Positions 10,891 to 46,509 of a stretch of 64,000 nucleotides of DNA are shown piece after piece. The stretch is taken from assembly GCA_963674945.2 (NCBI GenBank), contig CAXXWQ010000003.1, forward strand, positions 320,001 through 384,000. Reading direction: 5' to 3'. The DNA comes from an uncultured Desulfosarcina sp. GTDB lineage: Bacteria > Desulfobacterota > Desulfobacteria > Desulfobacterales > Desulfosarcinaceae. The notes under the pieces were generated by a model. The model worked only from the letters and a program-made list of their open reading frames with translations. It was not told the origin of the DNA and did no database searches. The translations under genes were made by a program, and so were the position numbers. How positions within the stretch are numbered: the stretch's first letter is position 1; each line of letters starts with the position of its first letter.

Positions 10891-12249
10891 ATGAAAAAAG
10901 TTCGAATAGGCGCAGGGAGCGGTTTCTGGGGTGATAACCTGGACCCGGCTGTAGAAATCGCAAAACATGGAAATGTGCAGTATCTTGCATATGATTTTTT
11001 GGGAGAGCCCACCATTCCTATCCTCCAAAAAAGACAAATGGCCAATCCCAGTCAGGGATATGTACCTGCGATCGGAGCAGTCGTTCGGAGCGCATTGCCA
11101 ATTTGCCTGGAAAAAGGAATTAAGATCTTAACAAATGCCGGAGCGGCCAACCCGCACGCCTGCGCCGAAAATATCTTGAAAAAGGCGAAAGATATCGGAA
11201 TCAAAAAACTTACGGTAGGCGTTGTAAGCACCAATGATATCCGGAAAAAGGTGGATGAGCTGTTAGATCAAGATATGAAACTTACGAATCTGGACACGGG
11301 TGCAGACGATCTCGCTAAGATAAGAGATAAAATTGTCGCAGCCTATGTCTATTCCGGGGCATATGGATTCGTAGAAGCGCTTGAAAAAGGGGCGGATATT
11401 ATCATTTCAGACAGGACCACCGATGATGCCGCCGTTCTGGCTCCGCTCATCCATGAATTTGGATGGAATTGGGACGATTATGACAAACTGGCACTGGGTA
11501 TCATGGCAGGTCACCTGATTGAATGCGGCGGCTCCTGCTCCGGTGGAATTACCAGCCTCTGGCAGGAAGTACCGAACCCGTGGGATATAGGCTACCCCAT
11601 TGCCGAAGTAACCGAACAGGGGGAATTAACGATTTCCAAGGTCGCCGGAACAGGCGGCTTGATCAACCAGGTAACGCTTACAGAACATCTTCTCTATGAA
11701 GTGCACGATCCGGGAAATTATTTCATGCCTGAAGTAATCTGTGATTTTACCAGTGTCGAGATGGAGGAAATAGCAAAAGATACCGTAAGGGTTTCGGGTG
11801 TCAAAGGCAAAAAAAGACCGGACACGCTCAAAGCTGGAATTGCATACACAGATGGCTATATTGGTGAGGTGGAGTGCTCTTTTTCATGGCCGCATGCAGT
11901 AAAGAAGGCAAAAAGAGCGATCGAAATTATCAAAAAAAGATTTGAGATGGTTGAACTTGTTGCCAATGAGGTCCGTTTTGACATTATCGGTGTCGATTCT
12001 TGTTTCTGGTCGAATGCACCTGAGCCTGACGAAAACATAAATGAAGTCAGGATAAGAGTTGCAGCCAAGTGCGATGACATACGGGAAGCATCAAAAGTTG
12101 CGCGCCAATGCGTAATGCTGATGGGATCGGGTCCCATTGGTGCAACGGGACAGCTTAATACGCCACCACCCCGAGAAGTCTTCGCCTTGTGGCCGACACT
12201 AATTCCGCGACAGGAAGTAACGAACCATGTCGAAATATTGGAGGGTTAG
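10891..12249 (+). CDS. Acyclic terpene utilisation AtuA-family protein (N-terminal module)
   Basis: RIGAGSGFWGD, LTNAGAANP, AGHLIECG, GYPIAEV, EHLLYEVHDP. Confidence 0.88.
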   Translation: MKKVRIGAGSGFWGDNLDPAVEIAKHGNVQYLAYDFLGEPTIPILQKRQMANPSQGYVPAIGAVVRSALPICLEKGIKILTNAGAANPHACAENILKKAKDIGIKKLTVGVVSTNDIRKKVDELLDQDMKLTNLDTGADDLAKIRDKIVAAYVYSGAYGFVEALEKGADIIISDRTTDDAAVLAPLIHEFGWNWDDYDKLALGIMAGHLIECGGSCSGGITSLWQEVPNPWDIGYPIAEVTEQGELTISKVAGTGGLINQVTLTEHLLYEVHDPGNYFMPEVICDFTSVEMEEIAKDTVRVSGVKGKKRPDTLKAGIAYTDGYIGEVECSFSWPHAVKKAKRAIEIIKKRFEMVELVANEVRFDIIGVDSCFWSNAPEPDENINEVRIRVAAKCDDIREASKVARQCVMLMGSGPIGATGQLNTPPPREVFALWPTLIPRQEVTNHVEILEG

Positions 12250-12252
12250 AAG

Positions 12253-12594
12253 ATGACAGGAATTCAGTTGAAAGACATCGTTTATTCCCGATCCGGAGAC
12301 AAAGGGGATATTTGCAACATAGCAATCATAGCCAAAGAAAAAAGATATTACCCCCTGCTCCAGAAATATCTTACCCCTGAAAAAATCAAAGAATTCTTTG
12401 GTGAAATGGTAAAAGGTGATGTATTTCGCTATGAAGTGCCAACGCTGAATGCGATGAATTTTGTTCTGATGAATGCCCTTGGCGGCGGCGCAACCAGAAG
12501 TTTACGTATGGATTTCACCGGGAAGACGATGTGCCAGGTCCTTTTGGGGCTGGTGCTGAATGTTGAAGAAAACGACTTGGATCTGATTCATTGA
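12253..12594 (+). CDS. AtuA C-terminal-like small partner protein
   Basis: SRSGDKGDICN, ALGGGATRSLRMDFTGK; 3 bp downstream of the AtuA-N gene. Confidence 0.85.
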   Translation: MTGIQLKDIVYSRSGDKGDICNIAIIAKEKRYYPLLQKYLTPEKIKEFFGEMVKGDVFRYEVPTLNAMNFVLMNALGGGATRSLRMDFTGKTMCQVLLGLVLNVEENDLDLIH

Positions 12595-13006
12595 TGTACA
12601 TCTGAAAATAACGTATGAAAGGAATCAAAAGGCGGTCCTTATAGATAGGTTGTTTCTGGAAGATGGTTCATCGTCAATTTGCCTACACCTTACGCGCTGC
12701 GATAGAAGAGACACAGTGACCCATTGGGGTAAAGCGATCAAACGCAATATGGAACATGCCGATTGCACCGCACAAAGCGAATCCACGAATCTCAAAAAGC
12801 CTAAAAAACGGACAAACCTGTAAGAAGCAATTGACGCAGATAGAAAACCGGGCATCTGTTTGCCTGGAACGATAATTGGATTGGAATCGTTGCCTGTTTG
12901 CGATGTCAGGTTGAAAACTTTCTATCAATGCTGCCCACATGATCGATCATCAGGCTGTGAAGATACTTTTTAAGATGGTTTGCTTACACATTTATGGGAA
13001 AATGGT

Positions 13007-13777
13007 ATGGCTGATTGCATATTGAAATATCATAAAGAAGGAAATGTTATTTCCATCACGTTCCCATCCGAGCCAATTGGCAAGGAACTGTTTGAAACGG
13101 TTCACTTCGAATTTTCCGATCTTGGCGAAATGATATTGGCTGAAAAAGATATACGCGTTTGTGTTTTATCGGGTATCGGCACGCAGACTTTCAAGTGGGT
13201 GACGGAAAGTCGTCATGGTTTGATGTGTTGGGCGGAGTGTGTGGGAAATGCACCCTCATTGTCAAATACTGCCATGGCCATGGACGTACCACTGATCGTT
13301 GGCATGGATGGCGAAATCGAAGGGCCGGGACTCGAACTGGCGCTCTTCTGCGATGTCAGGATAGCGACGTCGACATCCCGCTTTCGGTTTCCCCACGCGA
13401 AAATGGGGTGGGCTCCTTTTGATGGCGCCACGCAGATGTTGCCGAGGGTAATCGGAAAAAGCAGGTCCCTCGAGCTGCTTTTGACCGGTTCTTCCATCGA
13501 TGCAGAAACAGCCTATCGAATTGGATTGACACACTATATCGTTAATCCCGGCGAATTGACTGCAACCCTTTTCGAAATGTCTTCCAAGATGGCAGCCAAC
13601 AGTCCGACCTCCTTGCGGTATGTGAAAGAAGCAGTGGTCAAAGGTTTGGACATGACTGTCGAACAGGGGCTTCGGTTAGAGGCTGATTTATACTTTTTAT
13701 CGCATTCTACGGAAGATCGGATTGAGGGAATCAGCGCCTTCAAAGAAAAGCGAAAGCCATTGTTTACAGGCAAATGA
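13007..13777 (+). CDS. Crotonase-family protein with degenerate active-site motifs
   Basis: GPGLELALFCD, GATQMLPR, EGISAFKEKRKP; lacks the FCAGAD motif; the second Glu position reads PHAK. Confidence 0.85.
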   Translation: MADCILKYHKEGNVISITFPSEPIGKELFETVHFEFSDLGEMILAEKDIRVCVLSGIGTQTFKWVTESRHGLMCWAECVGNAPSLSNTAMAMDVPLIVGMDGEIEGPGLELALFCDVRIATSTSRFRFPHAKMGWAPFDGATQMLPRVIGKSRSLELLLTGSSIDAETAYRIGLTHYIVNPGELTATLFEMSSKMAANSPTSLRYVKEAVVKGLDMTVEQGLRLEADLYFLSHSTEDRIEGISAFKEKRKPLFTGK

Positions 13778-13796
13778 AACTTAATTAACGATATCC

Positions 13797-14531
13797 ATGA
13801 GCTTTCAAACGATAATTTATGAAAAAATAGAACGTATTGGTCACATTACGCTACACAGGCCCGAAGCGTTGAATGCGTTCAGTGTTCAGATGCGGGATGA
13901 TCTTTATGAGGTGCTGGATGCAATCCGATGCGATGACGAGATTCATTCTGTCATCTTAAGCGGTTCTGGGGAGAAGGCCTTTTGTGCCGGAGCGGATTTG
14001 AGCGAGTTCATGACGGCGCCGCCTCCGATACAAGCGCGTCAGATTCGGTTTCAGCGGGATATCTGGACGTTGTTTTATCGGATTCCCCAGCCGATTATTG
14101 CCGCCCTTCATGGTTACGTACTCGGCTCCGGAATTGAAATGGCCTTTTTTTGTGATATTCATATCGCATCGGATGATGCCAAATTTGGTCTACCGGAAGT
14201 GGGACTCGGGATCATTCCCGCTGCCGGTGGCACCCAAATGCTTCCCCGAACAATTGGCAGATCGAATGCGATGGAACTCTTACTCAATGGCCGCTGGATA
14301 GACGCGAAAGAAGCCTATCGTATCAAACTCATTGATCAAATTACAGAGCGCAAAGCACTGATGGATCGTGCGAAGAACGTCGCGCGCCGAATTGCCTCAC
14401 TGGATCCACACGTTGTTCGCTCTATTAAGAAAGCGGTCGTTTCAGGTATGGATCTACCGCTATCAGCAGGCCTGGAACTTGAAGATCGACTCCGTCTGAC
14501 GGCAAAAAAAAAACGTGATCGCCGAAAGTAA
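13797..14531 (+). CDS. Enoyl-CoA hydratase
   Basis: AFCAGADL, GSGIEM, PEVGLGIIPAAGGTQ (both catalytic Glu present). Confidence 0.9.
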   Translation: MSFQTIIYEKIERIGHITLHRPEALNAFSVQMRDDLYEVLDAIRCDDEIHSVILSGSGEKAFCAGADLSEFMTAPPPIQARQIRFQRDIWTLFYRIPQPIIAALHGYVLGSGIEMAFFCDIHIASDDAKFGLPEVGLGIIPAAGGTQMLPRTIGRSNAMELLLNGRWIDAKEAYRIKLIDQITERKALMDRAKNVARRIASLDPHVVRSIKKAVVSGMDLPLSAGLELEDRLRLTAKKKRDRRK

Positions 14532-14650
14532 ATGACCATTAAAGCCGGTGTGATCGATACGACAGCGCGGCGGCAAATGACCTTCAAGAAGGTTTACAAT
14601 TTCGGAAGAATAATAACCAAACATCGAACGAATGGAATGATATTGTGAAA

Positions 14651-15385
14651 ATGATCTATCAAAATACAACTGAGGCCATCTCCGACATTCCCAGCGGCGC
14701 CATCGTGGCCATCGGTGGTTTCTTCTCTGCCGGCGTCCCTCGAACGCTAATGCGTGCACTAAAGGAATTGGACATAAAGGATTTGACAATTGCCTGCGGA
14801 TCCGGACCCCTTCTTGGCGCCGCAGAGGAAGGGAAAGCGCTTTTGGAAGGAGATCAAATCAAACGTATCATCGACTCCTACGCCCTGCCGCGTTCCATCA
14901 GCAAGGGAAAGAACAACTTACTGGAACAAAAGGTTCGCGCCGGACAAATCGAGTTGGAGGTCTATCCCATGGGAACGTTAGCCGAAAAGTATCGCGCGGC
15001 AGGGGCTGGCGTTGCAGCATTTTATATCAAGACCGGGGTCGGTACGGTAGTGGAAAAAGGTGTTGTCACAAATATAGACGACAATGTCGCTTCCAAAGAG
15101 GTCAAAATCATTAACGGCGAAACCTGCGTGCTGGAATATGCATTACGGCCGGATTTTTCCTTAGTCCATGCGTATCGGGCAGATACCGACGGAAATCTTC
15201 AATATCGAAAGACTGCGCGCAATTTCAATCATGTAATGGCCATGGCCGGTCGCGTTACCATCGCCGAGGTGGAAGAGATCGTCGAGCCGGGCGAATTGGC
15301 TCCGGATTGTGTTCACACGTCTGGAATATTCGTTCAGCGGTTGGTGAAAGTACCGAAACTCGACTTCACTATTGGGATTGATTAA
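14651..15385 (+). CDS. Family I CoA-transferase subunit A
   Basis: IGGF, PMGTLAEKYRAAGAG, TGVGT, RKTARNFN, HTSGIFV. Confidence 0.9.
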   Translation: MIYQNTTEAISDIPSGAIVAIGGFFSAGVPRTLMRALKELDIKDLTIACGSGPLLGAAEEGKALLEGDQIKRIIDSYALPRSISKGKNNLLEQKVRAGQIELEVYPMGTLAEKYRAAGAGVAAFYIKTGVGTVVEKGVVTNIDDNVASKEVKIINGETCVLEYALRPDFSLVHAYRADTDGNLQYRKTARNFNHVMAMAGRVTIAEVEEIVEPGELAPDCVHTSGIFVQRLVKVPKLDFTIGID

Positions 15386-15836
15386 CACAGGGATGAAAAA
15401 ATGAATCGATTTGAAGGACTACCTCGCGAAATGATCGCCATGCGAGCCAGCAGAGAAATTAGCGAAGGCGACTACGTAAACCTTGGCATCGGCATACCGA
15501 CACTGATCTCCGACTGGATTGAAGGGCGCGATGTCACCTTACAGGCTGAGATTGGAATGTGCAAAACCGGTCCGCTGGCATTCGATAAAGATATCGACCA
15601 AGACCTGATCAATGCCAGCTGTCAACCGGTGACCGAACTCCCCGGATGCTCCTATTTCGATATTTCGGAATCGTTTGCCATGATTCGTGGCGGCCACATC
15701 GATGTTACCGTTATGGGCGCTTTTCAAGTCAGTGAGAACGGTGATTTCGCCGGTTGGAACAACCCGTCGAGAGGATTGAGCAGAGTGGGAAATATCGGCG
15801 GGTCCATGGATTTGGTGGCAGGGGCAAAAAAATTAA

Positions 15837-16884
15837 CTGGGGTATGCACTTAAATCCAGCACATACTATATGTTGTGGCCCAGGTCATCGTCAATTGGAT
15901 CGAGATTTAAATTTGCTGCCCCTTCCAAAAACGGTAACGATGCACCTTTAAGAGTACTAGCTGGGGCAGGGTCCACCATCACGGCCTGTTGGACCAGCCT
16001 GTAAAATAGTTTTCCGCGAGACACTGATGTTCTACGGTTGAACCTGAATGTGAATTCATCCAAATAGTACATCAAATGAGACGGTCTGACCGCCCCTTGA
16101 TAAGTACCAAGTAACCATCGTTTCATGAGCGACGCTACCAAATGTACAATCTTCAAGTCATGCGATGGAATCGCAATATGCTTAAATCCTTTATCGCCAA
16201 GGCTGCTATAGCCGGGCCAATCATCCGTCCTGATGGTGCTGCCTGGCTGGGCGATTTCTTGTACAAATTGAGTCAGACTATCTCCCGATGCGTCTTCGAG
16301 GTGCCAGAGTCTAATTCGCCCAATTCCTTTTCGGCCTTTATCCTCCACGGCAATACCGACCAAAGCTTTACCTTCAGCACCCCGACCGCGTTTTCCAGAC
16401 TTTTTCCCACCGACATAGGTTTCATCAACTTCAACAATCCCGGACAATCGGTCACGTCCTGGACGAACCATTGCTCTTCGAAGTTTATGGAGCCATTGCC
16501 AGGCGGTATTATAACTCCCAAGGTTAAGTACTCTCTGAAGCCCAAGTGCATTAGCTCCGTACTTCTGACCTGTAATGTGCCACATAGCCCGAAACCAAAG
16601 AGACAAGGGCTTTCTGGTGCCGTGAAAAATTGTACCGGAAGTTATCGTAGATTGATTTCCACAATCAGTACAATGAAACTGGGATCGTTTAGTTCTCCAC
16701 GAGGATGCAGAACCGCAATGAGGGCAACGGAAGCCTTCGGGCCATCTAAGAGCCATCAAATAGTCAGTGCATCCAGCTTCAGAGCTAAATCGTTTTTCAA
16801 ATTCTATCAACGTTCTGGGGTAATCTTCCTCCATAGACTGGTACACTATATGTTGTGGCCACTGGAGTCAAGTGCATACCCCAG
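15837..16884 (-). mobile_element. IS1595-family insertion sequence, 1048 bp
   Basis: IRs ctggggtatgcacttaaatccag / ctggggtatgcacttgactccag; 8-bp target duplication AAAATTAA (15829-15836 / 16885-16892). Confidence 0.95.
15866..16834 (-). CDS. IS1595 family transposase
   Basis: Zn ribbon CPHC...CTDC; VEVDETY, TDDW, YLDEFTFRFNRR. Confidence 0.95.
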   Translation of the reverse strand: MEEDYPRTLIEFEKRFSSEAGCTDYLMALRWPEGFRCPHCGSASSWRTKRSQFHCTDCGNQSTITSGTIFHGTRKPLSLWFRAMWHITGQKYGANALGLQRVLNLGSYNTAWQWLHKLRRAMVRPGRDRLSGIVEVDETYVGGKKSGKRGRGAEGKALVGIAVEDKGRKGIGRIRLWHLEDASGDSLTQFVQEIAQPGSTIRTDDWPGYSSLGDKGFKHIAIPSHDLKIVHLVASLMKRWLLGTYQGAVRPSHLMYYLDEFTFRFNRRTSVSRGKLFYRLVQQAVMVDPAPASTLKGASLPFLEGAANLNLDPIDDDLGHNI

Positions 16885-17186
16885 AAAATTAATTATCGCC
16901 ATGGAGCATACCACAACCAAAGGCGCTGCAAAGATCGTTAAAGAACTATCCTTCTCTGCCACTGGTTTAGGCGTGGTCAATAAAATTTTTACCGATCTGG
17001 CGGTAATTGAGGTAACCCCTGAAGGATTGGTGCTTCAGGAAGTCTTTCCAGGATTGACTGCTGAAAACATCCAGTCAGTGACAGAGGCGAAATTAATCAT
17101 CTCTCCCTCCCTGAAGGATATTGAACTTTAAAGAAACGAAAACAAAATATTTCGTGAACTGATTTATGAAACGAAAGGAGTATAAC

Positions 17187-19664: not shown

Positions 19665-19806
19665 TATACTCAAATTAGCGGAACCTCTCACCGATTTTTA
19701 ACGTTTGGTTATTCTATAAAAATAGTTTTGGGTTTCACCGGTTCTCAAACCATACCAAGAGCCTTGGCTATTTGGCAATGTGTCTGCTCAGTTGAAAGGA
19801 ATGATT

Positions 19807-21519
19807 ATGAAACGCTCTTTGAGATCGCTGTTGGCTGGAATCGTACTTTTTTCATTTTTGGCGATGGGTTGTGGAGGCGGAGGCGGCGGTGGGACGGTTT
19901 CCGACACAACGCCTGCTTCGAACAACAATAGTTATTACTCCAATCCTACGGACAGCAGAATCATAACGATTGTCGATGAGGAGGATCGTTCCACCTATAC
20001 CTATAACGGTGATATCGATACGGATGGGCAAATAATAAAACTAACCTCAATCGTCGTCAAAGATCCGGATCTTGAGGAGGATATTGTCTACTTTCTGAAT
20101 GAAGAAAGCTTTCCCGCCATGATCCATACATCCGAATTTACTTTTGCGTTGGAGCCCGTCTCAAATGCTGTCGTCCGTTTAACCGCCATCTCGACACTGG
20201 GTGAGGTCATGGTGAATATGCCGGTTGAATTGGACACGGGCGGCGAAGCCGGTGTGAGTGAAATATCTATGGAAGAAACGATGCCAAGCGCCATAAAAAG
20301 CCAGGCGCAAAGCAGTGCCGCCAATATGTATGCCACACTGACCAAATGTGGAAAGCTGGTGGAAAATGCTGCGATCTCCGTCAATATCGACCCGAAAATC
20401 GGCACAAGCAATCCGGTTGGTACGCATGTCGGTGATGGCCAATATGCGTTTCATATTCCTTCAACAGTTGAGGGCATGCTAAAAAAGTGTGATGCCATTC
20501 CTGACAAGATGGCTTCTTTTTGTGTTAAAGCAGCTTTGATTCCTACAAGTATTAAAACCTGTAATCAATTAGCGTCCGTTGTGGGTCTTATCAGTTCTGA
20601 CTATGCAAAGAGTGTCCAAAAATATTGCAAACCGGCGTTATTGAAACACCTGCCCAAGATAAAAACGATTTTATGCGATGAAAAAATGAGGAATGAGATC
20701 AAAAACGTCTGCAAATGGAACGTCATTATGGACATTCCCGAAGAAAGCCACTCTTTCTCATTTTCGGTTAAAATTCCCGGAAGCAAAACGTTTACAACGG
20801 AGACTGTCCCATTCTCTCCCAATATGAAATCTGTATCTGCATGGGAAATCACCGCACCATATGAAATTTCACTGGATAAACTGTATATTGTCCCCTCCGA
20901 TCCTGAAAGTGACGAGTGGTATACGGCGCATGCCTCCATGGTCTGTCCGGATCCTGATTACGGTACGACTGTCACACTTTCCGTCCAGGGCAGCGAGGGT
21001 TACAAAAATTCTGTCGAAGAAGTGATGAAAGTCAATTCGACAATCAGCCTCGATGTCCCGCCGGCATCTGATTCTGAAAAAGATGTTATCGATAAGATCA
21101 CCGTTTCCGCAGAAGGTCAGACATGGAGCATGAAGACCATGGCCGACGATACCAGAACTTGGACAATGGTTGTTCAAAGAGCCGCAGATGCAACCAATGA
21201 TGATGATATAACGACATGGTATGTGTGGTATGTGGACAACATGGGGTTGAAGCCGGTGATGGTGGGCACCAAAAAAGAGTTCGAAGAAGACAGGCTGTGC
21301 AGTTCATATCCCGGTGGCGGCACGGATCCCAATCTGCTCATGGATAAAGTACCGATTGTAGAGGCCTATGCAACCGAAGAATCAGCCATTGCGGCCGCCT
21401 GCAGTCAATTCACCGACATCATACGAGTGCCGGGCAGTTCCACATTCATATTTACGGACTGGATCGGTTACCTCGATGGAGAGAGACATGATATCGATGA
21501 ACTCGACGGATGTCAGTAA
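19807..21519 (+). CDS. Hypothetical Cys-rich lipoprotein
   Basis: MKRSLRSLLAGIVLFSFLAMG-C lipobox followed by a G7 linker; GAAAGGA RBS. Confidence 0.8.
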   Translation: MKRSLRSLLAGIVLFSFLAMGCGGGGGGGTVSDTTPASNNNSYYSNPTDSRIITIVDEEDRSTYTYNGDIDTDGQIIKLTSIVVKDPDLEEDIVYFLNEESFPAMIHTSEFTFALEPVSNAVVRLTAISTLGEVMVNMPVELDTGGEAGVSEISMEETMPSAIKSQAQSSAANMYATLTKCGKLVENAAISVNIDPKIGTSNPVGTHVGDGQYAFHIPSTVEGMLKKCDAIPDKMASFCVKAALIPTSIKTCNQLASVVGLISSDYAKSVQKYCKPALLKHLPKIKTILCDEKMRNEIKNVCKWNVIMDIPEESHSFSFSVKIPGSKTFTTETVPFSPNMKSVSAWEITAPYEISLDKLYIVPSDPESDEWYTAHASMVCPDPDYGTTVTLSVQGSEGYKNSVEEVMKVNSTISLDVPPASDSEKDVIDKITVSAEGQTWSMKTMADDTRTWTMVVQRAADATNDDDITTWYVWYVDNMGLKPVMVGTKKEFEEDRLCSSYPGGGTDPNLLMDKVPIVEAYATEESAIAAACSQFTDIIRVPGSSTFIFTDWIGYLDGERHDIDELDGCQ

Positions 21520-21593: not shown

Positions 21594-21630
21594 AAGGGCG
21601 GGGCTTTAAAATTAGAGCCCTGCCCTTTTT
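21594..21630 (+). terminator. Rho-independent terminator
   Basis: aagggcggggct...agccctgccctt followed by a T run. Confidence 0.7.
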
Positions 21631-21878
21631 GTCTCGATTCCTTCGCCAAAGCCTCAGTGTATCACGTCAATTCTACCGACATTCAGCCTCTATTGACATA
21701 TAAGCCATCTTGATATACATATCGCTTATTTAGTATATATATTGCAATTTAATTTTTTACATATTATACATCCAATATATAATTTACGTATAATATGATC
21801 AAGCCGAGTGGCTATGAGTACCGAATTTCCGTTTTTTGGAACCACATCATTTCATCAATAAATTTCAGGAGGTTGGAA

Positions 21879-24473
21879 ATGGCAGCCAAGACAACTGCGA
21901 AAGCTGAAGAAAAAACAAAGGAACCGCCGGTAATTTCCAGAAAGATTAACATCGACGCGATCAACAAGACCAACGGCTTTACGCCCAGGGTTCAGGCCAG
22001 CAGAAAGCGATACATGGAAACAATGTCCAAGGTTTCCAGTGACCGGGTCTGGTACATGATGCAGTCGTACAAAGAGACCGAAGGCCAGCATCCCTATCTT
22101 CGTCAGGCGAAGGCCCTTGCCAATGTCTGGGACAATAAAGCCATCGATGTCTTCGATTACGACCTCATCATCGGGAACTGGACGGACGCCGTCCGTGGCG
22201 CCCATCCAAAAACGGAGTTCCAGTTTGACCAGATGAAGCTGATGTTGGCCAACAACACCGCCGCCCGGACCAACTCGGAAGGCCAGGAGGCCTCTTTGTC
22301 ACAGCAGGACTATGACAGGCTCATGGCGGCTGCCGAGTATTGGGGAGAGAACTACCCCGACCCGGAAACACAAGAACGGTGGGACAGGATATTTGCCGAA
22401 CATGATCCTGATGACTGGGCCGGCGATTTGAGCTACACCGGGCTCGTCATGCGCTGTGAGCGCAACCCCGCCGACAAGCGCTTCAAGATGTCCGGCCACA
22501 AACGAATTAACCATGAACATGGTTTCGCCCAGGTAACCAACATTCAGGCTGCGGGTGCGAATTATGCCAACATACTGAAAATCGGCTACAGGGGCTACGT
22601 CAACAAGGCTCAGGAAGAAATGAAAAAGGTAAAGGAAGCCGCCAGGGGACGGGACTTCACCGACGATGAGAAGGAAAAGCTGGCCTTTTGTGAGGCATCC
22701 ATTATCGTCACCGAAGCCATGATCCGCTATGCCAAGAGATATTCCGCACTGGCTGCGAAAAAGGCCGCAAAAGAGAAGGATCCCCAGAGGAAAAAGGAAC
22801 TGGAAAAGGCAGCGGAAGTTTGCCTGCGGGTACCGGAGAATCCCGCCCAGACATTCCAGGAAGCCCTGCAGACCGTATGGTTCCACTTTTTGGGCATTCA
22901 TATGGAAAAAGCCATGCCCAATGTATTTGTGGGGCGCTTCGACCAGTATACGTTCCCCTACTACCAGGCGGACATCAATGAAGGTCGCATGACCCGCCAG
23001 GAAGCGGCGGAACTCATCGGTTGCTTCATCATGAAGATGGCGGAACTCGAACCGTACCTGACGCCGGAGCACCGTGCATTCATACAGGGCACGAATTATG
23101 AGAATGTTACCCTGGGCGGTGTGGACATCCACAACCAGGATGCATCCAATGAGGTTTCATGCCTGTTTTTGCATGTGGCCAAAGATCTGCGGATGCATCA
23201 ACCCTACATTTCGCTGCGGTATAACCCGAAAATGGCGCCCGAGCTGGAGGACAAGGCGTTCGAGTGTCTCCGGGTCCACGGGGCCGGAATCCCCGCCTTC
23301 TTCAGCGATCTGGTGAACATTCCGTACATGCTGGGCCGCGGGCATACCATCGAACATGCCCGGGACTATGCCATCGCCGGATGCATCGATGCCGTCTATC
23401 CGAACACCTTCGGCTGGGTACGAGGCAATATCGGCTTCAACAACATGGCCAAGGTAGTGGAAATTATATTGCATGAGGGCGTAGACCCGCGCACCGGGAT
23501 CAAGATCGGCCTGGATACCGGCGACCCGCGCGACATGACCTTCGACGAACTGGTGGATGCCTGGAAGAAGAATGTTTCTTACCAGATAAACAGGCAAATC
23601 GATATGTTCGAGGTATGGGACAGGGAGGGGACGGTTACCAAGGACAGCTTCCCTTACACGTTTATCTCCACCTTCCTGGATGGCTGTCTTGAAAACGGCA
23701 AGGATGTCACGCGGCATGGGCCCAGCGTCATCATTGACGATGCACACTACGGTCTCGACCGCTGTTTCCAGGACGCTTCCGACTCGCTGCTGGCCATCAA
23801 AAAGCTTGTCTTTGAGCAGAAGAAGTACACCATGGACGAGATGATAAAAGCGCTCGATGCAAACTTCGAGGGATATGAAAAACTCCAGGCAGACTGCATC
23901 GCCCAGCCCAAATTTGGAAATGACGACGATGAGGCAGATTACTTGATGAACGAACTCTGGACCTTCGTCAACAACCTGTATACGTCGAGAACAGATTACA
24001 TCGGCCGCAAGTACAATTGTTACCGCCAAGGGTCGGCGGTTGCCCACCAGGCTGGCAAATGGACCGGGGCGCTGCCCAATGGCCGCCTGGCCGGCGTTTC
24101 GCTGGCGGACTCCTCATTGTCACCGATGCAGGGTATGGACCTGAAGGGCCCCACCGCCGTCATCAACTCGGTCACCAAGATCGATGTCACCGATATGGAT
24201 GGCACGCTGTGCAATATGAAGCTTTGCCCAAGCCTGATCGATAAGCCCGGTGGAATGATGAAATTCAAACAGCTGGTGAGAACCTTCATGCTCAAGGGGG
24301 GCCAGCAGATTCAGTTCAATATTCTGGATAAGGATCGGCTGCTGGATGCCCAGAAGCATCCCGAGCAGCATCGCGATCTGGTAGTGCGTGTGGCCGGGTA
24401 CAGCGCATTCTGGGTTGACTTGGAGAAACAGGTACAGGACGAGATCATCAGCCGGACAGAGCATGCGATTTAG
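21879..24473 (+). CDS. Glycyl radical enzyme (PFL superfamily), substrate unknown
   Basis: C-terminal RVAGYSAFW glycyl motif; Cys loop YAIAGCIDA; GRFDQY, PKFGND, GALPNGR; CAGGAGG RBS before ATG 21879. Confidence 0.93.
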   Translation: MAAKTTAKAEEKTKEPPVISRKINIDAINKTNGFTPRVQASRKRYMETMSKVSSDRVWYMMQSYKETEGQHPYLRQAKALANVWDNKAIDVFDYDLIIGNWTDAVRGAHPKTEFQFDQMKLMLANNTAARTNSEGQEASLSQQDYDRLMAAAEYWGENYPDPETQERWDRIFAEHDPDDWAGDLSYTGLVMRCERNPADKRFKMSGHKRINHEHGFAQVTNIQAAGANYANILKIGYRGYVNKAQEEMKKVKEAARGRDFTDDEKEKLAFCEASIIVTEAMIRYAKRYSALAAKKAAKEKDPQRKKELEKAAEVCLRVPENPAQTFQEALQTVWFHFLGIHMEKAMPNVFVGRFDQYTFPYYQADINEGRMTRQEAAELIGCFIMKMAELEPYLTPEHRAFIQGTNYENVTLGGVDIHNQDASNEVSCLFLHVAKDLRMHQPYISLRYNPKMAPELEDKAFECLRVHGAGIPAFFSDLVNIPYMLGRGHTIEHARDYAIAGCIDAVYPNTFGWVRGNIGFNNMAKVVEIILHEGVDPRTGIKIGLDTGDPRDMTFDELVDAWKKNVSYQINRQIDMFEVWDREGTVTKDSFPYTFISTFLDGCLENGKDVTRHGPSVIIDDAHYGLDRCFQDASDSLLAIKKLVFEQKKYTMDEMIKALDANFEGYEKLQADCIAQPKFGNDDDEADYLMNELWTFVNNLYTSRTDYIGRKYNCYRQGSAVAHQAGKWTGALPNGRLAGVSLADSSLSPMQGMDLKGPTAVINSVTKIDVTDMDGTLCNMKLCPSLIDKPGGMMKFKQLVRTFMLKGGQQIQFNILDKDRLLDAQKHPEQHRDLVVRVAGYSAFWVDLEKQVQDEIISRTEHAI

Positions 24474-24515: not shown

Positions 24516-24549
24516 ATACAGGTCGCGCTCTTTTGAGCGCGGCCTGTAT
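24516..24549 (+). terminator. Strong hairpin downstream of the GRE
   Basis: atacaggtcgcgctc-tttt-gagcgcggcctgtat. Confidence 0.7.
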
Positions 24550-24663
24550 ATGTATCGGGTAGTGAATCCTAAGCTGAGCGTTTCAAATTTTCTCATATGA
24601 TGAAAGGCCCAAAATCTATTAAACGATAGCGAAATATTTCCTCGAAAATTTGAAACCCGTTGG

Positions 24664-24763
24664 GATTGCCGATCTTACCGCATCTACGGCGTCAAATGCC
24701 TCCCCGCATAGGCGACTATAACGGAAAGTCATCTTCCTTGTACCTGCGGCAAGCTCGACAATC
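24664..24763. repeat. Nested palindromic MITE/REP-like element
   Basis: Outer IR gattgccgatcttaccg / cggcaagctcgacaatc (14/17); inner hairpin centred on atag-gcga-ctat. Confidence 0.55.
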
Positions 24764-24834: not shown

Positions 24835-26130
24835 ATGGTGGAAGAAAAAAACGAGAAAAAAGGAAAAGAATCGAAGACCGTCCCATCCCCAAACGGCAAG
24901 CGCCGATGGCTGATCCGGATCTGCGGTGTCGGTTTGCTGATCCTTGCATTGACCATCGGAATTCCCTATTTACTGCACGCGCTTTCCCATGAATCCACCG
25001 ATGACGCCTTCATCGACGGAACCATTGTATGGATCAGTCCGCGGATCAGCGGTACCGTGACAAAGGTGTTGACCGACGACAATCAATGGGTTCGGGCGGG
25101 AGAACCACTGGTTGCACTGGATCCGGGTGATTGCAAAGTTCGGTACGATGCCGCGACCGCCGCCGTAAAAGCGGCCGAAGCCTCCGTTGTTGCAGCCGAA
25201 GCCATGGTAAAAACAGCCGAAGCCGCAACCGCCGCAGCAGGCAGTCATCGGGATCAAGCCAAGGCGCAGCTGGTTCTCGCCGAGGCAACCCTGTCCCAAC
25301 ATCAGGCGGAGGCGGATTCAAAGAAAGAAGAACATCAGCGCAACATCAAAGACCTGGTCCGCGCAAGGCAAATGGCCAAAACCGATACCATCTCCGAGCA
25401 GGGTCTCGATCACGCGTTGGCCGCTGAACGGATGTCCGCTTCGGATGTAAAGGCCGCGGAATACAAAATCGAGACACAGAAGGCCGCAGTGCAGCAGGCA
25501 AAATCCGCCCTTGCGGCCGCCGAAGACTATTTGCGTCAGGCTTGCGCACAAACCGACGCACAGCGTGCACAGGCTCTCAAGGCACGCGCCGATGTCGATC
25601 GGGCCGCTGCGGAGCTTGAACAATCCGCCTTGCAGCTTTCCTACACGAAAATCATTGCACCGGTAGACGGCTATGTCACCAAAAAATCGGTCGAACAGGG
25701 CGCCTTTGTCCAGACGGGGCAAATGCTGATGGCATTGGTTCCTTCCGAAGTCTGGGTGACAGCCAATTTCAAGGAAACCCAGTTGACCCATATGCTAGTT
25801 GGACAACCGGCGACCATCAAGGTGGACACATTTCCGGATGTCACGTTTACCGGCCATGTGGCGAGTTTTCAGCGTGGCACCGGAGCACGATTCAGCCTGT
25901 TGCCCCCTGAAAACGCTACCGGCAATTTTATCAAAGTTGTCCAACGTGTTCCGGTAAAAATCATTTTCGATAAAACCGATCAGCTGAAACGCTATCCGCT
26001 GGCCTTAGGGCTTTCCGTTCAACCGGAAGTCGACATCCGCGCAAACGGTGTTATGCCCGGTACGGCAGTTGGTAAGAACCAACCTTCAAATTTCGATATA
26101 GCGGGCAAGAGCACCGGAGCCGAAAAATGA
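24835..26130 (+). CDS. emrA: EmrA/HlyD-family membrane fusion protein
   Basis: ESTDDAF, long coiled coil, ANFKETQL, FSLLPPENATGNFIKVVQRVPV. Confidence 0.92.
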   Translation: MVEEKNEKKGKESKTVPSPNGKRRWLIRICGVGLLILALTIGIPYLLHALSHESTDDAFIDGTIVWISPRISGTVTKVLTDDNQWVRAGEPLVALDPGDCKVRYDAATAAVKAAEASVVAAEAMVKTAEAATAAAGSHRDQAKAQLVLAEATLSQHQAEADSKKEEHQRNIKDLVRARQMAKTDTISEQGLDHALAAERMSASDVKAAEYKIETQKAAVQQAKSALAAAEDYLRQACAQTDAQRAQALKARADVDRAAAELEQSALQLSYTKIIAPVDGYVTKKSVEQGAFVQTGQMLMALVPSEVWVTANFKETQLTHMLVGQPATIKVDTFPDVTFTGHVASFQRGTGARFSLLPPENATGNFIKVVQRVPVKIIFDKTDQLKRYPLALGLSVQPEVDIRANGVMPGTAVGKNQPSNFDIAGKSTGAEK

Positions 26131-27701
26131 CCGAGCCTTCAATGGCCACAAAGCCCCCGGACACCGGGGCGATCAATAAGTGGATCATTGTGGCGACCAC
26201 GGTGTTGGGCTCGTTCATGTCGGTTATGGACGTCAGCGTCGTCAATGTGTCCCTGCCCCACATGATGGGAAGTTTCGGCCAGGATCTGTCGTCTATTACC
26301 TGGGTCGCTACCAGCTATACCATTGCCGAGATCATCATGGTCACCATGACGGGGTGGTGGAGTACCTTCATCGGACGGAAACGGCTCTATCTCTGGTCCT
26401 ATGGATTGTTCACCATCGGCTCCATCCTTTGCGGAACCGCCCAAACCTTCCCCCAGTTGATCGTCTACCGTGTGCTTCAAGGTATCGGGGGCGGCGCCCT
26501 GATCCCCGTCTCAACGGCGATCATGCGCGAGGCCTTCCCACCCGAAGAGCAGGGCATGGCCATCGCCATCAACGGCATGGGGGTAGTGCTGGCCCCGGCC
26601 CTCGGGCCCATTATCGGCGGTTGGCTGACGGACCAGTACGGTTGGCCCTGGATCTTTTATATCAACGTTCCGGTAAGCATTATAGCAATCTCCATGGCCG
26701 TGGCCTTTATCCATGATCCTCCTTATCTGCGGCGTGGAATCAAAAAGATTGACTGGGCAGGCATCATTCTTTTGGCCGTGACCTTGACCGGTATGCAGAT
26801 CATCCTCGAGCGGGGGCAATCCGAGAACTGGTTCGAATCAAACCTGATCACGGTTGGAACGGTTGTCACTTCCGTGGCCGCCCTGATTATGATCTGGTGG
26901 GAAATGAAAACGAAAGAGCCCGTGGTCAACCTTCGCATCTTACGGAATCTGCGCTTCACCGTTGGTTCGTCGGTGGGGATGCTTTTTGGATTGGCGCTCT
27001 TTGGGACCACCTTCGTTCTGCCGCAATTTACCCAGCAACTGCTCGGTTATCCCGCCTTCGAGGCGGGCCTGGTGCTGGCGCCAAGAGCCGTCATGCTGAT
27101 CATCATGTTTCCGGTGACCGGACACTTGATAAAGTACATGGAACCACGAAACCTCATTTTGATCGGTGCCGTCGTTACGATTTGGTCTTACCACGATTTA
27201 TCACAGCTTTCCCTCCAGGTCGGGTTCTGGAATATGGTCCCCATGCTGGTGGTCATGGGTATCGGTATGCCGCTCGTATTCACCACTCTCGGCACGGTTG
27301 CGCTATCCAACATTCCCCGCCCGGATATGACCGATGCCACGAGCCTTTACACGCTGACCCGGCGCGTGGGGGGAAACATCGGGTATGCCCTGGGCGCGAC
27401 CTGGGTATCCCGTGGCTTCCAGATTCACAGAAGCCATCTGGTCTCGCACGTCACGGCATCAAGCCCCCAACTCCTGGCCTACACGAAAGCAGGCACCGCA
27501 CTGGCTTCTCAAACCGCTATCGGAGCGGCCGCGGCGCCTCAGGCAAGCCTGGGCCTCGTCGACATGGTGGTGAACCGTCAGGCCGCCATGCTGGCCTACA
27601 ATGATACCTCCTTTTATTTCGGACTTCTCTACATTGCGATCATTCCCCTTGCGTTTCTTCTCCCCAAACGCTCCGAATTGTATACGCCAACGAAGCATTA
27701 G
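26127..27701 (+). CDS. emrB: EmrB/QacA DHA2 MFS efflux permease
   Basis: DVSVVNVSLP, RVLQGIGGG, GPIIGGWL, WIFYINVP; ATGA overlap with emrA. Confidence 0.92.
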   Translation: MTEPSMATKPPDTGAINKWIIVATTVLGSFMSVMDVSVVNVSLPHMMGSFGQDLSSITWVATSYTIAEIIMVTMTGWWSTFIGRKRLYLWSYGLFTIGSILCGTAQTFPQLIVYRVLQGIGGGALIPVSTAIMREAFPPEEQGMAIAINGMGVVLAPALGPIIGGWLTDQYGWPWIFYINVPVSIIAISMAVAFIHDPPYLRRGIKKIDWAGIILLAVTLTGMQIILERGQSENWFESNLITVGTVVTSVAALIMIWWEMKTKEPVVNLRILRNLRFTVGSSVGMLFGLALFGTTFVLPQFTQQLLGYPAFEAGLVLAPRAVMLIIMFPVTGHLIKYMEPRNLILIGAVVTIWSYHDLSQLSLQVGFWNMVPMLVVMGIGMPLVFTTLGTVALSNIPRPDMTDATSLYTLTRRVGGNIGYALGATWVSRGFQIHRSHLVSHVTASSPQLLAYTKAGTALASQTAIGAAAAPQASLGLVDMVVNRQAAMLAYNDTSFYFGLLYIAIIPLAFLLPKRSELYTPTKH

Positions 27702-33527: not shown

Positions 33528-33578
33528 CGAGGAGATGTGGCGCTGATCAGAAATTCATCACATTTTAAGGAGGTATCG

Positions 33579-35426
33579 GTGGCAGCATTTTTGGTAGATA
33601 AACGAGATCAGCTTTTTGTTCTGAACGATATGCTTGAAATCGATAAAATTTGTGAATTTGAGAAGTTTTCCGAGCATACCGGATTCGAAATGGTTTTGAC
33701 CGAAGCCCACCGGTTTGCCAAGAATGAATTTTATCCCACCCTTCAAGATGGTGACAACCAGGGGTGTGTCTACGATCCTGAAACCCACTCCGTTCTCTTT
33801 CCCGAGTGTTTTAAAAAGCCATACGAAAAGTTCAAAAAAGGAGGATGGCTCGCCATGTGCGACAGCCCGGAGGTTGGCGGTGACGGCTTTCCGCTCACCA
33901 TTGGAACGGCCGTTTCCGAAATTTTTTATGCCTCGGGATTTTACATTTACGGAGCAGCAGAATTGAGTCACGCCGGTGCAAAAGTGCTCGAGAAGTACGG
34001 CACCCAATCCCAGAAAAAACTATATATGACCCGGCTCTTTTCAGGTGAATGGATGGGCACCATGTGCCTTACCGAACCGGATGCCGGCAGCGATGTGGGC
34101 AAAGTAGAGGCCAGCGCATCGCTTCAATCCGATGGGACTTACGCCATCACCGGCACCAAAATATTTATCACGGCCGGTGAACAGGATCTGACAGAAAATA
34201 TCATTCACATGGTTCTGGCCCGTGTGTAAGGAGATCCCTCCGGTACGAAAGGACTTTCTCTTTTTATCGTTCCCAAGTTTCTGTCCGACGAAACCGGTAC
34301 GATTACGAAACGCAACGACGTCAAATGCATGGGTATCGAGCATAAGATGGGGCTGCACGGTCTAGCTACGTGCACCATGTCTTTTGGCGACAATGATGCG
34401 TGTACCGGATACCTGTTGGGAGATCGAGGGAAAGGCATCGTCGAAATGTTCAACATGATGAACGAGCAGCGTCTTCTGGTCGGACTGCAGGGCCTTTCCT
34501 ATTCTTCCGCCGCATTCTTGCATGCCGTGGAGTACGCAGGAACACGCAAACAGGGATTTTCGGTTCATCCGGACAGGCAAAAAAAAGGATCGGTGGCCAT
34601 TATCGAACATCCGGATATCAAGAGGATGCTTCTGACACTGAAGGCCCACGTTGAGGGGGGGCGGGCCCTGGCCTATTTCGCCAGCATGTGCATTGATTAT
34701 GCCGCCGTCACCGAAGGGGAAACCCAGGCCCGCTGGCAGGGATTGGCCGAACTGCTGACCCCCATCGTCAAGGCCTATCTGACTGACAATGCATGGGAAG
34801 ATACCGGCATGGCCATCCAGGTCGCCGGCGGTTACGGTTACTGCTCGGATTATCCCTTTGAAAGGCTCGCCAGGGACTGCAAAGTCTCCAGCATCTATGA
34901 AGGGACCAATGGGATACAGGCCATGGATCTGGTGTTTCGAAAAATCATTGGCAACCAATCGGTCAATTTCAATCATCTGATGGCGTGTATGGACCAGACC
35001 ATTCATTACGCTGAGACAATCGAAGGGTTGACCGCTTACGCTGCCATGGTGCAACAGGCCAGGCAGGATCTCGAGCCTGTCGTGCACCACTTCGTGGATC
35101 TTTTTGAAAATGGCCGGATGGACCATGTTTATGCCAAAGCCAGTCCATTTCTGGAAGTTATGGGAGATGTTTTATTGGGTTGGCTGCACTTGTGGCAATT
35201 GACCATCGCCCTTCCGGAATTATCGAAGGAAATTGATGAAAAGGAAAAATCGGAAGCCATCAAATTCATAAAAAAGAAGAAAAACCTTTCTTTCTACTAC
35301 GGCAAAGTTGCCAGCGCGCAGTTTTATATTCAAACGATGTTGCAGCGAACAAAAGGCAAATTGGAAGCGCTGAAATCATCATCTGATCCTGTAGTAGACA
35401 TTTTCGAAAAAGCCTTTACCGGTTGA
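33579..35426 (+). pseudogene. Long-type acyl-CoA dehydrogenase with an in-frame TAA at 34227-34229
   Basis: Both ORF fragments are in one frame: MCLTEPDAGSD...HMVLARV*GDPSGTKGLSLFIVPK...IYEGTNGIQA; AAGGAGG RBS before GTG 33579. Confidence 0.88.
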
Positions 35427-44980: not shown

Positions 44981-45051
44981 GAAAGCGTCCTCTAATCTGC
45001 TGATAGAGAACAGACTAAATGACGAAGACAAATCCAGGTAAAGGTCAAACA

Positions 45052-46509
45052 ATGAAGATCGAGACCAGTTCAGACTACATGTCCAGTTTGCAGGCAATCA
45101 AACCGGTTATTTATTACAAAGGCGAGAAAATCGAAGACGTAACCACGCACCCGGCCACAACGCCCCATGTGCGGGCCGCGGCCATGACCTATGCATTGGC
45201 TTCTCAGGCCGAATATCACGAACTGGCCACGGCGATCTCCCATCTTACAGGAAGAAAGATCAGCCGCTTTACCCATGTCCACCAGAATGTTGAAGATCTC
45301 ATCAAGAAAGTTAAGCTGTTACGTGTTCTGGGACAGAAGACCGGCACCTGCTTCCAGCGCTGCGTGGGATTCGACGGTATCAACGCCACCTACGCCACGG
45401 TCTATGAAATTGACCGGAAGTACGGCACCGACTACCTGGAGCGGTTCAAAAAATGGCTGATTCGTGTCCAGGACGAGAACTTGATGGTGGTTGGCGCCAT
45501 GACCGACCCGAAGGGCGACCGATCCAAAGGACCGGCCGACCAGCCCGATCCGGACCAATATCTCCACATCGTAGAGCGCCGCGAAGACGGCATCGTCATC
45601 CGCGGCGCCAAACTTCATATGACCGGCGCGGTCAATTCCCATGAAATCCTGGTCATGCCGACCACGGCAATGAACGAGGCGTCCAAAGACTATGCCTTCA
45701 TCTGCTCGTTGCCTGTGGACGCACCCGGCATTACGATGATATTCGGTCGTCAGGCCAATGACAGCCGGCGTGATCTGAAAGAAACCATCGACGTGGGCAA
45801 ACCCTCCTTCGGCATCGTCGGCGGTGAGGCGGTGATCGCCTTCGAGGATGTTTTCGTGCCCTGGGAAAACGTCTACATGGATGGCGAAACCGACTTCACC
45901 GGTCTGATCGTACACCGTTTTGCCGCCCACCACCGGGCTAACTATGGTGCCTGCAAGACCGGCCTGATGGATGTGCTGACAGGTGCGGTGACCTACCTGG
46001 CCCAGGCACAGGGAACGGCCAAGGGTTCCCACGTGCGCGACAAGGTCACCGAGATGATCCACCTGAGCGAAACCCTGTACAGTTCGTCCATCGCCTGCTC
46101 GGCAGAGGGTGTGCCGACCCCGTCGGGAGCATTCATGGTGGACACCATGCTGGCCAATGTATGCAAGCACAACGTGACCCGGTTTCATTTCGAGGTGGCG
46201 CGCCTGGCCGTTGACCTGGCCGGTGGCTTCATCGCCACCTTGCCAAGCGAGCACGACCTGCGTAGCGAGAAGATCGGCCACATCGTGAAGAAGTATTTCT
46301 CGGGCGTGGCCGACATACCGGTGGAAGACCGCATCAAAATCGGGCGACTCATCGAGGCCATGACCGGCGGCACGGCCATGGTGGAATCCATGCATGGCGC
46401 GGGCTCACCCCAGGCCCAGCGGATCATGATCTTCCGGGAAGGCGAATTGGCAAAGAAGATGTCGCTGGCCAAGGCCCTGGCCGGTATTCCTTCACGAAAA
46501 AACGGTTGA
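45052..46509 (+). CDS. abfD: 4-hydroxybutyryl-CoA dehydratase family (FAD, 4Fe-4S)
   Basis: TCFQRCVG, GAMTDPKGDR, HHRANYGACK, ESMHGAGSPQAQR. Confidence 0.88.
   Translation: MKIETSSDYMSSLQAIKPVIYYKGEKIEDVTTHPATTPHVRAAAMTYALASQAEYHELATAISHLTGRKISRFTHVHQNVEDLIKKVKLLRVLGQKTGTCFQRCVGFDGINATYATVYEIDRKYGTDYLERFKKWLIRVQDENLMVVGAMTDPKGDRSKGPADQPDPDQYLHIVERREDGIVIRGAKLHMTGAVNSHEILVMPTTAMNEASKDYAFICSLPVDAPGITMIFGRQANDSRRDLKETIDVGKPSFGIVGGEAVIAFEDVFVPWENVYMDGETDFTGLIVHRFAAHHRANYGACKTGLMDVLTGAVTYLAQAQGTAKGSHVRDKVTEMIHLSETLYSSSIACSAEGVPTPSGAFMVDTMLANVCKHNVTRFHFEVARLAVDLAGGFIATLPSEHDLRSEKIGHIVKKYFSGVADIPVEDRIKIGRLIEAMTGGTAMVESMHGAGSPQAQRIMIFREGELAKKMSLAKALAGIPSRKNG

Follow-up and report, generated by a model that had tools for sequence, protein, structure and literature searches.

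Gene and locus

A stretch of 64,000 nucleotides from an uncultured Desulfosarcina sp. (assembly GCA_963674945.2, contig CAXXWQ010000003.1, positions 320,001 to 384,000 of the forward strand; hereafter the window) contains a gene for a glycyl radical enzyme (GRE), hereafter the query. An earlier note had described it as a monocistronic, orphan GRE of 864 amino acids with the radical motif RVAGYS and a cysteine loop reading GCID, and had regarded the aspartate of this loop as the mark of an uncharacterized GRE class activated in trans. The length, both motifs and the positions of the Cys and Asp codons are confirmed by the sequence (Table 1), and the product has the features of the PFL-like GRE superfamily: Gly840 in RVAGYS, Cys502 and the barrel fold. 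An AlphaFold model (predicted local distance difference test 88.2, predicted template modelling score 0.90) shows the predicted 10-stranded GRE barrel, and Foldseek aligns this model with solved GREs at template modelling (TM) scores of 0.79-0.85 and about 30% sequence identity.

The layout described earlier was also found, so far as signals can be predicted: the terminator of the upstream gene probably insulates the GRE gene, a promoter-like site and a ribosome-binding site precede it and a hairpin follows it, so that the gene is, by these predicted signals, monocistronic. The 199 bases preceding its ATG are 70% A+T, and the search that gave the promoter-like site found 7 such sites vs 3.6 in shuffled sequences. 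Neither an activase nor a small Fe-S subunit is encoded within the window, as the earlier note had stated: the motif CxxxCxxC occurs in only two short open stretches (45 and 52 codons), and none of the 11 open reading frames (ORFs; at least 25 amino acids) overlapping the two gaps that flank the query has an Fe-S motif.

Table 1. Features of the GRE gene and its flanks (window positions).
Feature	Position	Strand	Remarks
GRE gene, C-x-N / DR / RQG clade	21879..24473	+	864 amino acids; motifs, profiles, model, trees
Intrinsic terminator of upstream lipoprotein-like gene	21594..21627	+	15-pair stem and T run; fold -26.8 kcal/mol
Predicted sigma70-like promoter consensus, TTTACA-16-TATAAT	21756..21783	+	11/12 matches; AT-rich region
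Ribosome-binding site AGGAGG	21867..21872	+	Supports ATG at 21879
Asn348 codon	22920..22922	+	Kept in 76/76 clade members; barrel strand
Cys502 codon TGC, predicted thiyl-radical cysteine	23382..23384	+	Sequence motif, alignment
Asp504 codon GAT, Cys+2 position	23388..23390	+	Asn in 71/76 clade members
Arg515 codon	23421..23423	+	Aligns with fumarate-carboxylate-binding Arg508 of benzylsuccinate synthase (BSS); Arg in 62/76
Asp627-Arg628 clade signature	23757..23762	+	Invariant; end of barrel strand
Arg716-Gln717-Gly718 signature	24024..24032	+	Gln717 aligns with BSS Gln707
Gly840, predicted glycyl-radical site, RVAGYSAF	24396..24398	+	Identical in activase-linked paralogues C4:727614 and C4:741902
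Hairpin downstream of GRE gene, without T run	24516..24549	+	Fold

A distinct clade of GREs

To which family of GREs does the enzyme belong? Its scores fall short of all NCBIfam cut-offs for GREs, it stands outside all the characterized families placed in our trees, and it almost certainly represents a distinct, uncharacterized clade, as had been supposed, which lacks the Cys-loop glutamate and carries the signatures C-[IV]-N, Asp-Arg and Arg-Gln-Gly. The clade was delimited within 376 non-redundant GRE sequences of at least 550 amino acids, using a profile made from 51 close homologues; a score of at least 1030 separates 76 clade sequences from 300 others, the next best score being 993. Membership is partly a product of how this profile was constructed, and the trees confirm it. 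The clade is monophyletic with FastTree (50 of 50 rows, support 96) and with IQ-TREE (7 of 7 rows, support 95/95; 30 of 45 rows used), and the FastTree tree nests it in a larger group (78 rows, support 100) that contains no characterized reference. As references we used natural sequences passing the NCBIfam cut-offs for CutC, HypD, HpsG/IslA, PflD and HPAD, one BssA, and rows that match AAD or the motifs of PhdB primers; the trees include no true IAD, PhdB or glycerol dehydratase sequence. The references for the five NCBIfam families, BSS and the PhdB-like rows are all outside the clade.

Besides Asn348, Asp627 and Arg628, residues Arg716 and Gly718 are invariant in the 76 members, and Gln717 is kept in 73. 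The position of Asn348 is, we presume, that of Ser282 in glycerol dehydratase. By profile-profile alignment, Arg515 and Gln717 would correspond to Arg508 and Gln707 of BSS, both of which bind fumarate; the pair is present in 61 of the 76 clade members vs 6 of the 300 others, a set without X-succinate synthase rows.

No GRE that acts on steroids or has a C-x-N loop was found in literature searches, whose coverage mostly excluded subscription papers; the accessible text of a 2026 review likewise names neither among the GREs it covers (PMC13450708), and the ESM Atlas gave generic GRE clusters only. The larger uncharacterized group also includes GREs of a Chloroflexi genome (G045; L022, L026, L054, L145-L147), in which 23 GREs were matched; a G-C-S-Q loop together with Asp-Arg and x-R-x-G is seen in many of them.

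The residue after the thiyl cysteine

According to the earlier note, Asp504 replaces the catalytic Glu and thereby defines a new chemistry. This does not hold. At Cys+2, Asp is found in only 4 of the 76 clade members and Glu in one (P0015), Asn being the residue of the other 71; GCID is thus not conserved and C-x-N dominates the clade. The query's 90% cluster has six other members, five of which were aligned (a 92-amino-acid fragment was left out): three have Asp and two have Asn, that is, the two residues alternate among orthologues more than 90% identical. Asp504 can therefore be neither an obligatory acid/base nor a catalytic signature of the clade; it is very probably neutral relative to Asn and is in itself of little weight. 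A sequencing or assembly error is ruled out, because, in the same study, a contig of a different sample shows 0 differences over 23306-23457, confirming the Asp codon, and three independent orthologues, 92-97% identical to the query, carry Asp too. The earlier note had thus picked out a real clade by way of the wrong residue. Nor is a Glu-less loop by itself rare, since 133 of the 300 other GREs have no Glu (Asp in 33).

The carboxylate of C-x-E bonds the backbone NH groups of the Cys loop in IAD and other GREs, as described in PMC13598205, and the backbone-NH pocket of BSS and MASS is reported to hold the fumarate carboxylate (PMC12358834). A short Asn or Asp at Cys+2 would cap the loop and leave this pocket open.

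Among the sequences outside the clade, a separate, widespread and uncharacterized group has a G-C-[LVI]-D loop in which Asp looks fixed (L023, L024, L027-L029, L031, P0082, P0097), and this group is closer to the earlier idea about Asp than the query is. In 9 of the 300 (e.g., P0067, P0109, P0113) the radical Gly is replaced by Thr or Ala, making them aminoacyl radical enzymes.

Copies, occurrence and probable activation in trans

The genome (7.08 Mb), that of a dsrA-positive sulfate reducer, has 10 GRE loci, 8 of them in the clade, the seven paralogues being 39-62% identical to the query. The gene is therefore an orphan within the window and not in the genome, which also encodes four GRE activases, three of them coming directly after a clade gene. 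Two of the three share 96% identity with each other and are located behind the 62%-identical paralogues C4:727614 and C4:741902, whose C-terminal radical domains match that of the query at 77% identity (48-58% for the other paralogues) and whose Gly loop is the same. Cross-activation of GREs that share a Gly loop is documented (section 2.5 of PMC13450708), and three clade copies in Binatia (L142, L143, L144) also have no nearby activase, at least 5.6 kb being covered on each side. Judging from these likenesses, the query is probably activated in trans, as had been suggested, by the activases beside the 62%-identical paralogues.

The clade is rare. It was not found in the 64 family relatives searched, in 400 other genomes of the phylum or in 401 genomes of the class of genome G044 (the best two candidates per genome being scored in the latter two sets), nor in 50 of the order of G044; a first contig scan with generic GRE patterns gave 80 loci, 4 of them clade members. 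Clade members did turn up in 8 genomes out of a sample of 301 from the class to which a Binatia genome belongs, and further ones among proteins with the labels Chloroflexota and Halieaceae; the query has its own orthologue group of at least 11 sequences with 77-97% identity.

Two further GREs of this genome are outside the clade: one (C3:2604431-2606842) has 334 codons before a TGA in its frame, and a relative with 45% identity in another genome (G018) is intact; the other (C3:689025-692440; L017), which groups with eliminases, has its own activase and the loop G-C-S-D.

Gene neighbourhoods and a probable link to steroids

Neighbourhoods were compared in 27 regions, 8 in this genome and 19 from other sources; several of the 27 consist of short contigs, with L123 and L124 probably repeating L019. 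Within 10 kb of a clade GRE, an activase is found in 16 regions, a 4-hydroxyacyl-CoA dehydratase/isomerase of the AbfD type in 8, one Amidohydro_2 family in 7 and a KstD-like gene in 5. The KstD-like genes match AcmB (E 7e-117) and keep the catalytic tyrosines, at positions which we take to be those of AcmB; their suspected status as pseudogenes was rejected, as the stops are terminal. This genome has four copies, two of which have a clade GRE 0.15 kb and 1.6 kb away, respectively, and none occurs in 30 congeners. Its three AbfD-type genes all lie 3-21 kb from a clade gene, a distance that takes in 3.3% of the genome.

The Amidohydro_2 family has 57 matches, including Steroidobacter denitrificans WP_066918687.1 and Seongchinamella sediminis WP_117956030.1; the GRE-linked copies are 38-60% identical to one or other of these, and 3 of 30 congeners have relatives at 34-36%. 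S. denitrificans AtcA is WP_066918684.1 (PMC7264893). [quoted passage not shown] An AtcA-like molybdenum enzyme lies beside one clade GRE (L021), and three of the 120 matches listed for it, at 71-74%, are JGI-named 3-oxo-Delta1-steroid hydratase/dehydrogenase. In a Binatia genome (G042), about 30 kb hold genes for Ltp2/ChsH2, acyl-CoA dehydrogenase, CoA transferases, an AtcA-like protein, GRE, activase, AbfD, ligase, hydrolase, SnoaL and a KstD-like protein, and KstD, the SRAH-family hydrolase and AtcA occur together in three Binatia genomes (G042, G043, G306); in the Desulfosarcina genome, KstD-like and hydrolase genes are present and an AtcA-like gene is absent. Of the 301 genomes of the Binatia-class sample, 44 have an AtcA-like gene, and every one of the 8 GRE-positive genomes belongs to these 44 (hypergeometric value 1.2e-7).

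Clade GREs thus cluster with counterparts of genes for the anaerobic 2,3-seco ring-A pathway (KstD/AcmB, AtcABC, SRAH; PMC11780191), namely KstD-like, AtcA-like, SRAH-family hydrolase, ligase, acyl-CoA dehydrogenase and Ltp2/ChsH2-like genes. The accessible description of that pathway mentions no GRE, and most AtcA-positive genomes are without one. It is rather likely that the clade acts on a steroid or a steroid-like cyclic substrate.

A link to the estrogen methyltransferase EmtAB was considered and dropped, as the corrinoid-associated gene near C3:983062 looks to be of the URO-D/MtaA type, which has many copies in the genome. Many methyltransferase and corrinoid-protein pairs, some in identical tandem copies, lie near the islands of GRE, KstD-like and hydrolase genes (e.g., C3:970893-972827, C4:685056-693804 and C3:262226-269265).

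A possible reaction

How might a GRE without the glutamate act in such a context? From the neighbourhoods and the residue mapping onward, what follows is our inference. With neither a glutamate base nor a His164-type acid, C-C scission is favoured, and C-C cleavage is, by a little, the likelier outcome for this enzyme than addition or elimination. Our best explanation, put forward tentatively and at somewhat less than even probability, is that the query is a base-free radical C-C lyase acting on a steroid-derived carboxylic acid in a breakdown of the ring-A seco-acid type. An activase acting in trans would install the radical on Gly840, from which it would pass to Cys502 as a thiyl radical. 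The short Asn or Asp at Cys+2 would cap the loop, the backbone oxyanion pocket being left free, and Arg515, Gln717 and the open Cys-loop pocket would hold the carboxylate of the substrate, a seco-acid that may be made by the linked hydrolase. Hydrogen abstraction or one-electron oxidation would then be followed by C-C scission with no acid/base glutamate, either as decarboxylation or as a beta-scission that reverses the addition step of BSS, and the product would pass to a CoA ligase and then, for dehydration or isomerization, to the AbfD-type enzyme.

Several points weigh against this explanation. The pocket assignments come from sequence-profile alignment, and an Arg within residues 512-517 is absent in 12 of the 76 clade members, including the five paralogues of 838-859 amino acids in this genome. 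The steroid evidence comes from the 62%-identical paralogues and from Binatia relatives at 45%; within 10 kb of the query there is an enoyl-CoA hydratase and none of the neighbours listed above. AbfD also occurs in 10 of 30 congeners without a GRE and was not found in two of five GRE-positive Binatia genomes, and the identity of the hydrolase with SRAH is presumed from accession proximity and family. The hypergeometric value given above overstates the association of the GRE with AtcA-like genes, because related genomes do not count as independent and because the AtcA query was taken from a GRE-positive genome; moreover, 36 of the 44 AtcA-positive genomes have no GRE, so the GRE is not a core step of the 2,3-seco pathway. 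This genome has no AtcA-like gene (best match 26%) and no obvious CoA transferase pair of the IpdAB type, and is therefore without the known steroid pathway. Finally, the affinity of the clade to decarboxylases, i.e., HPAD, IAD-like and PhdB-like rows, is weak in the trees (80/75 in IQ-TREE).

What would such an enzyme mean? PMC11780191 states that an unknown route seems to serve steroid breakdown where conditions are sulfate-reducing, iron-reducing or methanogenic, and that ring-B cleavage is unresolved; seven GRE reaction classes are listed in the 2026 review (PMC13450708). A steroid-acting GRE, or base-free C-C scission, would add a class to these seven. A rare clade that is present eightfold in a sulfate reducer with KstD-like genes and also in AtcA/hydrolase clusters of Binatia offers named genes, an activase and candidate substrates. 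A bolder version, which we think unlikely, would make the query the first steroid-degrading GRE, performing beta-scission of a ring-A seco-acid held in a BSS-like Arg/Gln clamp and thereby filling in the ring-B step and giving sulfate reducers without molybdenum enzymes a route, with the eight paralogues serving different steroids.

Comparison with characterized GREs and other explanations

The enzyme likely works in the manner of the Glu-less GREs BSS, PhdB and AAD and is a member of none of these families. The X-succinate synthases (BSS alpha, PDB 4pkc and 5bwd; MASS, 9o8u) share with the query the Glu-less Cys loop and the GRE barrel, and the match of Arg515 and Gln717 to two fumarate ligands of BSS raises a first alternative, a convergent hydroalkylase that adds a steroid or alicyclic C-H to fumarate or a similar acceptor, replacing molybdenum-dependent hydroxylation in a sulfate reducer. 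Genes for class III CoA transferase, acyl-CoA dehydrogenase, hydratase, SDR and thiolase/OB-fold proteins, whose families act once fumarate has been added, often lie near clade GREs, and neither an S25DH-like nor an AtcA-like enzyme was found in this genome. However, the query and the X-succinate synthases are only 25-29% identical, with C-M-[SA]-P in the latter (C-M-S-P in BSS) vs C-I-D/N in the query and its clade; a common clade with BssA/AssA is rejected (approximately unbiased test, p 3e-6); the position of BSS Asn615 is not conserved, and the DR and RQG motifs are the clade's own. In addition, no small Fe-S subunits like those of the X-succinate synthases adjoin the query, BSS and MASS come at the bottom of the listed GRE folds once PFL and RNR are set aside, and the Binatia loci carry AtcA-like genes besides the GRE. 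We consider this alternative unlikely.

Somewhat less probable still is a non-steroid, non-oxidative decarboxylase of aryl- or alkyl-acetates of the PhdB, AAD or IAD type, whose hydrophobic product would be exported, for instance by the EmrAB-like pump encoded downstream, where HlyD and MFS efflux genes (24835-27701) directly follow the query on the same strand. The list of known loops in the earlier note had omitted PhdB and AAD, which like the query are single-subunit GREs without a Cys-loop Glu. PhdB has a C-x-Q loop whose Gln484 is essential and cannot be replaced by Glu (PMC7079210); AAD has C-V-L by alignment with PDB 7e7l, which is the third-best PDB match to the query. The weak tree affinity mentioned above would also fit a decarboxylase. 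Yet PhdB-like and AAD-like sequences are outside the clade, the former grouping with HPAD/IAD-like rows, and PhdB, by motifs read from published primers, has the loop GCVQS and the strand motif SAYSV (Tyr691/Val693) where the clade has YRQG. Membership in PhdB is accordingly rejected on its C-V-Q loop, the Tyr691/Val693 motif and tree position, with PhdB-like rows as a stand-in; membership in HPAD and IAD is rejected on scores of 362 and 439 bits vs cut-offs of 1150 and 1100 and on the lack of C-x-E. The neighbours differ as well, being CoA-linked catabolic and steroid-type genes for the clade and fermentation genes for PhdB and AAD.

The closest folds to the query are those of eliminases and isomerases (CutC, glycerol/propanediol dehydratase, HypD, IslA/HpsG, PflD/YbiW; TM about 0.84, Z 41-44.5, about 30% identity), which would suit a dehydratase, eliminase or isomerase using another acid/base, Asp627 with Arg628 or Asp504, in place of the Cys-loop Glu. 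Both residues of the former pair are invariant, and P0015 has Glu at +2. Against this, these enzymes need C-x-E, and according to sections 5.6-5.7 of PMC13450708 all six C-O eliminases, CutC and the GRE isomerases keep it, whereas the clade has Asn, Asp or rarely Glu, and His at the His164 position of glycerol dehydratase in 0 of 76 members. Asp504 alternates with Asn, and Asp627 and Arg716 may face away from the pocket, judging from the alternation of strand residues. Membership in CutC, HypD, HpsG, HpfG and PflD is rejected (382-463 bits vs cut-offs of 1000-1109), the query lying outside their clades, and we regard this explanation as improbable. The formate lyases PFL and TdcE are likewise rejected, since GCID is without two adjacent cysteines and the TIGR01255 score is 97 bits vs 994.

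It is very improbable that the query is a displaced, little-used duplicate without its own function: it stands apart from activase and pathway genes, several insertion sequences lie in its region, and P0270 (a query orthologue) and P0011 (an orthologue of C4:741902), for both of which the longest contig has 79,775 bases, suggest that the two cluster in a relative, but its ORF is intact, with a promoter-like site, a ribosome-binding site and all clade residues, and the separate orthologue group implies selection.

Other features of the window

Upstream of the GRE gene, a lipoprotein-like ORF of 579 amino acids (19780-21519) has a glycine run and many cysteines, with no Pfam match. At 6-11 kb upstream, positions 10891-15853 encode AtuA, an AtuA-ferredoxin protein, two enoyl-CoA hydratases and a CoA transferase pair. 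A CoA-transferase beta-subunit gene (15401-17131) is split by an IS1595-family transposase gene (15866-16846, minus strand), its C-terminal part continuing past the element. Downstream, an acyl-CoA dehydrogenase is encoded as two ORFs (230 and 365 amino acids; 33537-35426) inside a beta-oxidation operon, and a 4-hydroxybutyryl-CoA dehydratase-type gene (45019-46509), 20.6 kb from the query, shares 77% identity with its counterpart in the GRE cluster on C4. A short dispersed repeat at 24611-24720 has seven further copies in the genome, with 79-89% identity, and shows very high depth in unrelated sediment runs.

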